Shown here piece after piece: positions 19,497-20,608 of a DNA stretch of 64,000 nt (position 1 is the stretch's first letter; every line of letters begins with the position of its first letter). The stretch is from assembly GCF_003334815.1 (NCBI RefSeq), contig NZ_QOWO01000007.1; one strand, written 5' to 3'. The position numbers and the translations under genes were made by a program. The notes beneath the pieces were generated by a model. It saw nothing but the letters and a program-made list of their open reading frames with translations, was not told the DNA's origin and made no database searches. This stretch comes from Escherichia coli. GTDB taxonomy: Bacteria > Pseudomonadota > Gammaproteobacteria > Enterobacterales > Enterobacteriaceae.

Positions 19497-20432
19497 TTAT
19501 TTCACTTCAACCACATTCAGCCGTAACTCATCCAACTGATTTTCATCTTCTTCTGGCTGCCAGCACGCCGGTTGTAGTGGGATCTCTTCGCGATCAAACG
19601 CCAGATCACCCCCGTTAACCACTTCAGAACCGTGGGTGATGCCTTTGAAATCGAACAGGTTGGTATCGCACAGATGCGACGGCACCACATTCTGCATCGC
19701 GCTGAACATCGTCTCGATACGCCCTGGATAACGTTTATCCCAGTCACGCAACATGTCAGCAATCACCTGACGTTGCAGGTTAGGCTGTGAACCGCACAGG
19801 TTGCACGGAATAATCGGGAACGCTTTTGCATCGGCAAATCGCTGAATATCTTTCTCGCGGCAGTAGGCCAGCGGACGAATAACGATATGTTTGCCATCAT
19901 CGCTCATCAGTTTCGGAGGCATACCTTTCATCTTACCGCCGTAGAACATATTTAAGAACAACGTTTGCAGGATATCGTCACGATGGTGACCCAACGCGAT
20001 CTTCGTCGCCCCCAGTTCCGTTGCGGTACGATAAAGGATACCGCGACGAAGGCGAGAACACAGTGAGCAAGTGGTTTTGCCCTCTGGAATCTTCTCTTTC
20101 ACGATACCGTAAGTATTCTCTTCAACAATCTTGTACTCAACGCCCAGCTTTTCAAGATACTCGGGCAGAACGTGTTCCGGGAAGCCCGGTTGCTTTTGAT
20201 CGAGGTTAACAGCCACCAGCGAAAAATTGATTGGCGCGCTTTGCTGCAAATTGCGCAGAATCTCCAGCATGGTATAGCTGTCTTTACCCCCGGAGAGGCA
20301 AACCATGATGCGATCGCCTTCTTCAATCATATTGAAGTCAGCAATGGCTTCGCCCACGTTACGACGCAGACGTTTTTGTAATTTGTTCAGGTTGTATTGT
20401 TCTTTCTTACTAATTTCTTGATTTTGCGACAT
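19497..20432 (-). CDS. ttcA: tRNA 2-thiocytidine synthase (PP-loop ATPase)
   Basis: 311 aa, PP-loop CLSGGKDS, CxxC pairs; uninterrupted. Confidence 0.9.
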
Positions 20433-20573
20433 TTAAAAGCGACTCAATTCGTTATATGGCATCAGAAGAGTATGCGTCATGCCGGAACGCCCAGCATAAG
20501 AAATCTGATATAAAAAACTGTGGCGTGTATGGTACGGATTAGAGGGGAAAATGTCAGCACATTTGCGAAATGA

Positions 20574-20601
20574 ATCAAAAAGCCCGCAGCAATGTGCGGG
20601 C
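20574..20601 (-). terminator. intrinsic terminator downstream of uspF
   Basis: GCCCGCA-gcaatg-TGCGGGC followed on minus strand by TTTTT. Confidence 0.5.
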
Positions 20602-20608
20602 GTTAGTG

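Follow-up and report, generated by a model that had tools for sequence, protein, structure and literature searches.

Phages such as e14 and phage 21 in icd, together with many phages at the 3' ends of tRNA genes, integrate within a gene and carry a replacement for the end that they displace. The Rac prophage of Escherichia coli K-12 resembles them in that a near-copy of the displaced segment keeps the target functional. Whereas those phages replace 3' ends, Rac replaces the 5' end of its target, ttcA, and must therefore also bring a start codon, a ribosome-binding site and upstream transcription signals. In K-12, Rac is positioned between ttcA and ttcC' (Liu et al. 2015, Sci Rep 5:16074, PMC4632033). 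The same work described XisR (YdaQ) as the Rac excisionase, with IntR/XisR catalysing the reaction, and reported that excision alters four N-terminal residues of TtcA because attL and attR match imperfectly (PMC4632033). The resulting TtcA' N-terminus was found in strains without a rac-like prophage at ttcA, the gene is likewise unoccupied in HS, IAI1, ATCC 8739 and UMN026, and fitness under carbenicillin was unequal between the two TtcA variants (PMC4632033).

The DNA analysed here, referred to as the window, is a 64,000-nucleotide stretch of an E. coli genome (contig NZ_QOWO01000007.1 of assembly GCF_003334815.1). Within the 5' end of its intact, native ttcA it holds what is almost certainly the unoccupied chromosomal attachment site (attB) used by Rac-family lambdoid prophages. 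The locus shares with the K-12 Rac site the same gene, the 26-bp core, the native N-terminus of the delta-rac TtcA' and the same four residue differences from the TtcA of the lysogen (PMC4632033). It differs in two respects: the empty site of K-12 delta-rac came from induced excision, while that of the window lies in a wild-type-like genome, and the IS insertions that neighbour the K-12 site are absent from the window. No evidence contradicting the unoccupied-attB reading was encountered across the 64 kb.

Both genes at the junction lie on the minus strand, with uspF transcribed first. The preliminary description, made from the sequence alone, had given ttcA 311 codons and placed uspF 176 bp further on, and the reading-frame coordinates bear this out: ttcA occupies 19497-20432, uspF 20609-21043 (144 amino acids), and the spacer between them 20433-20608. 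The 311-residue product of ttcA, in its native (TtcA') allele, scores 513.5 bits over the whole protein against a cut-off of 272 for the NCBIfam equivalog NF007972, tRNA 2-thiocytidine(32) synthetase. This PP-loop ATPase was also sought by its motifs, a SGGxDS PP-loop and conserved CxxC cysteines, the latter being Fe-S cluster ligands; SGGKDS is present at residue 47, CSLC at 122 and CNLC at 210. Judged on family score and motifs, the gene encodes TtcA, and s2C32 formation in tRNA is predicted. Universal stress protein F scores 302.2 bits (cut-off 166, NCBIfam equivalog NF011581) and is identical to its K-12 counterpart at 144/144 residues. A 168-aa reading frame starting at GTG was discarded as a mechanical over-extension of uspF; the 144-aa product is the one that matches K-12 UspF.

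Comparison of the whole protein with K-12 TtcA confines the differences to residues 2, 3, 6 and 8 (S2Q, Q3E, E6Q and S8T, from window to K-12), precisely the four changes that Liu et al. 2015 gave for Rac excision (PMC4632033). The first 17 residues are those of the translated K-12 ttcC pseudogene, which confirms that the N-terminus is native, as had been proposed. At the nucleotide level, ttcC corresponds to window positions 20382-20432, that is, codons 1-8 plus the attachment core. The native codons 1-8 (20409-20432, minus strand), which in lysogens are swapped for a phage-borne imitation, are the same in the window, attR and ttcC and encode MSQNQEIS; attL is mismatched at 10 of these 24 bases and encodes MQENQQIT. 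The RefSeq annotation of K-12 agrees with the stated arrangement in which Rac sits at ttcA and furnishes its 5' end, the first 50 bp of K-12 ttcA being Rac-supplied DNA.

The attB core of Rac-family prophages lies at 20383-20408, within ttcA codons 9-17. In a base-by-base comparison of the window, attL and attR, the two K-12 ends are identical over these 26 bp, TTGTTCAGGTTGTATTGTTCTTTCTT; beyond the core their match is imperfect as far as the start codon, and right of the core the window matches attR exactly. The core occurs as a single exact copy (26/26 bp) in the window, where none is expected by chance, and as two copies in K-12, one at each end of Rac. Window positions 13484-20425 align to the left (ttcA) side of Rac, up to K-12 coordinate 1411941, and 20383-25424 to its right (ttcC-uspF) side, from 1434959, so that the attB flanks are continuous with the bacterial arms of attL and attR with no DNA between them. 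The junction thus overlaps the interval 20400-20610 in which alignment to K-12 had been predicted to place it, starting 17 bp to its left. Neither a second copy of the core nor an integrase gene was found within or next to the 64-kb window, and the neighbourhood of attB holds no integrase, excisionase or phage genes, the window consisting of K-12 backbone genes only. Use of a secondary site is reported for CFT073, and a Rac-like element may lie beyond the 64 kb covered here. The anatomy of attB, attL and attR, the att core, the identity of the allele and its frequency in the population are all direct observations.

Phage records place the attachment site at the same point. The record of phage Rac-SA53 (GenBank KU052037) has a 26-bp att feature annotated there, and GenBank records of Rac-like phages carry the same 26-bp feature adjoining intR. 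The Rac-SA53 attL shares with the native sequence only 20383-20397, the first 15 bp of the core, which suggests that strand exchange takes place within these 15 bp. A search for a free-phage attP, using a reconstructed query made of the Rac right end, the core and the left end, returned no record in the phage collection covering at least 80% of the query. The Rac-like phage records either derive from prophages or are cut at the att site, and the feature labelled 'attP' in Rac-SA53 has an attL-like context that includes part of ttcA.

On this anatomy, the tyrosine integrase IntR, with the excisionase XisR, would recombine a 26-bp phage sequence with window positions 20383-20408, and the window attB is probably recombination-competent and able to accept a Rac-type phage. 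Such a phage bears, beside int, an imitation of ttcA codons 1-8 plus upstream sequence, and because it imitates the 5' end, ttcA stays open after integration with four N-terminal residues altered. Along with the native 5' end, which becomes ttcC, both the 176-bp spacer and uspF are displaced by about 23 kb, and in lysogens codons 1-8 and all DNA upstream of them are phage sequence. In the window, integration has either not taken place or been exactly reversed, and ttcA has its own N-terminus and upstream region.

The wider setting was examined by aligning the window by BLAST to MG1655 positions 1388000-1484000 with their RefSeq annotation. The whole 64 kb is collinear with K-12 MG1655 1390318-1481432 and more than 99.9% identical to it outside the ydbA repeats. 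Every base of the window aligns to K-12 backbone, and there is therefore no extra DNA in it. Differences outside ydbA amount to 15 substitutions and two small deletions; the source is thus very closely related to K-12 without being derived from it. The alignment shows the precise absence from the window of four segments of K-12: Rac (1411899-1434958, between ttcA and the ttcC pseudogene), IS5F (1396044-1397238, between ynaI and ynaJ), and IS2D (1467910-1469240) and IS30C (1469296-1470516), both inside ydbA. The annotation thus upholds what had been stated of K-12, an IS5 between ynaI and ynaJ and an IS2 and an IS30 in ydbA. The statement that none of these elements occurs in the window holds as well: the sequence that K-12 carries at both ends of each IS occurs just once in the window, as expected of empty targets, namely a single CTAA at 5723-5726 between ynaI and ynaJ, a single AACCC at 53035-53039 and a single CT at 53088-53089, the last two inside ydbA.

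The preliminary description spoke of an unoccupied arrangement. That the site is empty stands, and the phrase covers two histories that share one sequence, a site never occupied and a site vacated by precise excision. Virgin and vacated sites look alike because IntR/XisR excision regenerates exactly this sequence (PMC4632033). The first history, in which the lineage was never lysogenised at ttcA, can be given an even chance. It accords with the commonness of the empty state, seen in 46% of genomes, and with the three K-12 IS sites, which are also empty with a single target copy each. Precise loss of an insertion sequence is rare, so these sites fit a lineage that split off before K-12 gained its local mobile elements. 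Against it, the flanks are almost identical to K-12, with 3 SNPs in 20 kb on the left and 7 in 31 kb on the right, equally close relatives hold Rac-like prophages at ttcA (Z1323PEC0012), and a cured site would have the identical sequence. A recent ancestor of the window strain may well have been a lysogen, given these near-K-12 flanks and the occupied state of equally close relatives.

The second history, in which precise IntR/XisR excision removed a Rac-like prophage and restored the ancestral ttcA, stands only just short of an even chance. Rac is excision-proficient and the product of its excision is exactly this attB and TtcA' (PMC4632033); the closest relatives include a K-12-type Rac and a sitABCD-bearing Rac-like element; and the flanks lack the imported divergence expected from homologous replacement by DNA of a distant strain. 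However, precise excision is scarless and leaves no direct trace, and the IS-free neighbourhood suggests that the lineage is not simply a K-12 derivative. With flanks nearly identical to K-12 and closest relatives in mixed states, the two histories of the unoccupied attB are about equally likely.

Close relatives in the complete-genome collection illustrate both states. The best 25-kb matches are to the phylogroup-A-like natural isolates strain 54, Z1323PEC0012 and IAL7250, and isolates from cow, dog and human match the window at 100% over 25 kb; no genome identical to the whole window is present in the collection. Strain 54 (NZ_CP041284) resembles the window in its empty site, its gene order dbpA-ttcA-uspF-ompN and its intact ydbA; over 46 kb the two are separated by 12 substitutions and 2 gaps. 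Z1323PEC0012 is 100% identical to the window over 25 kb, yet has a Rac-like element of about 26 kb at ttcA, a cryptic prophage whose left half matches K-12 Rac. At the right end of this prophage, just inside attR, lies the sitABCD iron/manganese transporter operon (locus L009, 1843-5292); cargo therefore varies among Rac-family elements at ttcA.

These relatives also bear on whether the arrangement might be artificial, either an engineered prophage- and IS-free K-12 derivative or an assembly that collapsed a prophage. The very high identity to K-12 would agree with such an origin, and the sequence quality may be imperfect, as hinted by two private homopolymer indels in ynbC. Nevertheless, the window carries its 15 substitutions outside ydbA, diverged ydbA repeats and a 294-bp copy-number difference from K-12, the natural cow, dog and human isolates match it perfectly over 25 kb, and the ttcC-type junction has exactly the sequence seen in 2,486 independent genomes. 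Collapse of an assembly over a 26-bp repeat is implausible. An artificial origin is accordingly very improbable, and an engineered reduced-genome K-12 in particular was rejected on account of the substitutions, the ydbA repeat difference and the matches to field isolates.

The unoccupied attB is an ordinary allele of this site. A 576-bp query spanning the junction found ttcA and uspF contiguous in 2,486 of the 5,426 complete E. coli genomes, a count that includes at least one genome with an IS1 in the spacer, and a second query made of K-12 attL plus the 3' end of intR found the Rac-type ttcA-integrase junction in 2,909. Together the two classes account for 5,395 of the roughly 5,410 genomes with a match, so the ttcA site is a simple two-state polymorphism, about 46% empty and about 54% occupied. 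The empty site was already described in 2015 (PMC4632033), and the present observation is a correct re-observation of published biology. The locus has little import beyond annotation; both the Rac attB and the native allele of ttcA can be read from it as a clean reference. Additionally, it shows the local K-12 chromosome as it was before Rac, IS5F, IS2D and IS30C, including an intact ydbA autotransporter gene. It may prove useful as an integration target for Rac-type phages, or for comparison when TtcA variants are studied.

In an evenly spaced sample, occupied genomes fall into two types: roughly two in three break exactly at the core (window 20383, position 151 of the query), and roughly one in three break at window 20537 instead of the att core, a type seen in 7 of 40 evenly spaced rows, about one sixth of the sampled genomes. 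The one genome of this type that was inspected, MS 200-1, holds a decayed Rac-like remnant of 2.3 kb (locus L005, 4799-6984) with integrase and DUF1627 fragments and a frameshifted gene for a metal ABC transporter permease; attR and ttcC are deleted, along with about 100 bp of spacer that include the promoter-like site. A second integration site at 20537 was considered and rejected, the break in MS 200-1 being that of a decayed Rac-like remnant and not of a separate att.

The 176-bp spacer (20433-20608, minus strand) that the empty state leaves upstream of ttcA is 100% identical to the K-12 ttcC-uspF spacer. Scanning it revealed a terminator-like match, the putative intrinsic terminator of uspF, at 20601-20582 on the minus strand and, on the same strand, one weak consensus match only to a sigma-70 site 5' of ttcA at 20557-20529. 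Promoter-like matches in the spacer region did not exceed the shuffled expectation, and no promoter is therefore claimed; native ttcA would be transcribed from the spacer. In E. coli ZF34 (NZ_CP047461.1), whose site is otherwise unoccupied, an IS1 sits between ttcA and uspF, so insertion sequences can also strike the spacer. On the other side of ttcA, the 128-bp gap between the stop codons of the convergent genes dbpA and ttcA (19369-19496) contains a REP/BIME-like palindromic element (gccggatgcgacgctggccgcgtcttatccggcc...), read straight from the sequence.

In lysogens the whole region upstream of ttcA is phage DNA, and this DNA lies 51 bp downstream of intR-xisR, genes with RpoS-dependent expression. 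Integration and excision could conceivably form a reversible switch that governs how ttcA is regulated in addition to setting the four residues, although we regard this as unlikely. Under such a switch, the native 176-bp spacer upstream would drive transcription of ttcA in the empty state, and expression would differ between the two widespread alleles (46% and 54% of genomes).

Elsewhere in the window, the absence of IS2D and IS30C leaves ydbA (BigA/YdbA autotransporter; 50816-56584, plus strand) as a single intact, uninterrupted reading frame of 1922 amino acids. At 5769 bp it is 294 bp, or one repeat unit, shorter than the 6063 bp of the reassembled K-12 pseudogene, and the annotation of strain 54 shows the gene at this same 5769-bp length. 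The tandem repeat at 51476-52135 has a unit of 294 bp (98 amino acids) in 2.2 copies, and nowhere does the window diverge more from K-12 than in this region, at 97.8% identity. In ynbC (about 61709-63463, plus strand), comparison with K-12 shows two deletions, one at 61737 (T7 to T6) and one at 62823 (AAAA to AA), that split the gene into three reading-frame pieces (reading frames at 61765-62892 and 62936-63463). A 7,501-bp query matched 5,408 complete genomes, and the best-scoring among them all align over 7,504 bp; with these 3 extra bases, none of the genomes appears to have the deletions, which are either private mutations or homopolymer sequencing errors. Finally, three known small RNAs are intact at their K-12 positions: McaS at 14140-14235 on the minus strand (118 bits), FnrS at 17613-17730 on the plus strand (135 bits) and MicC at 22542-22662 on the plus strand (125 bits).
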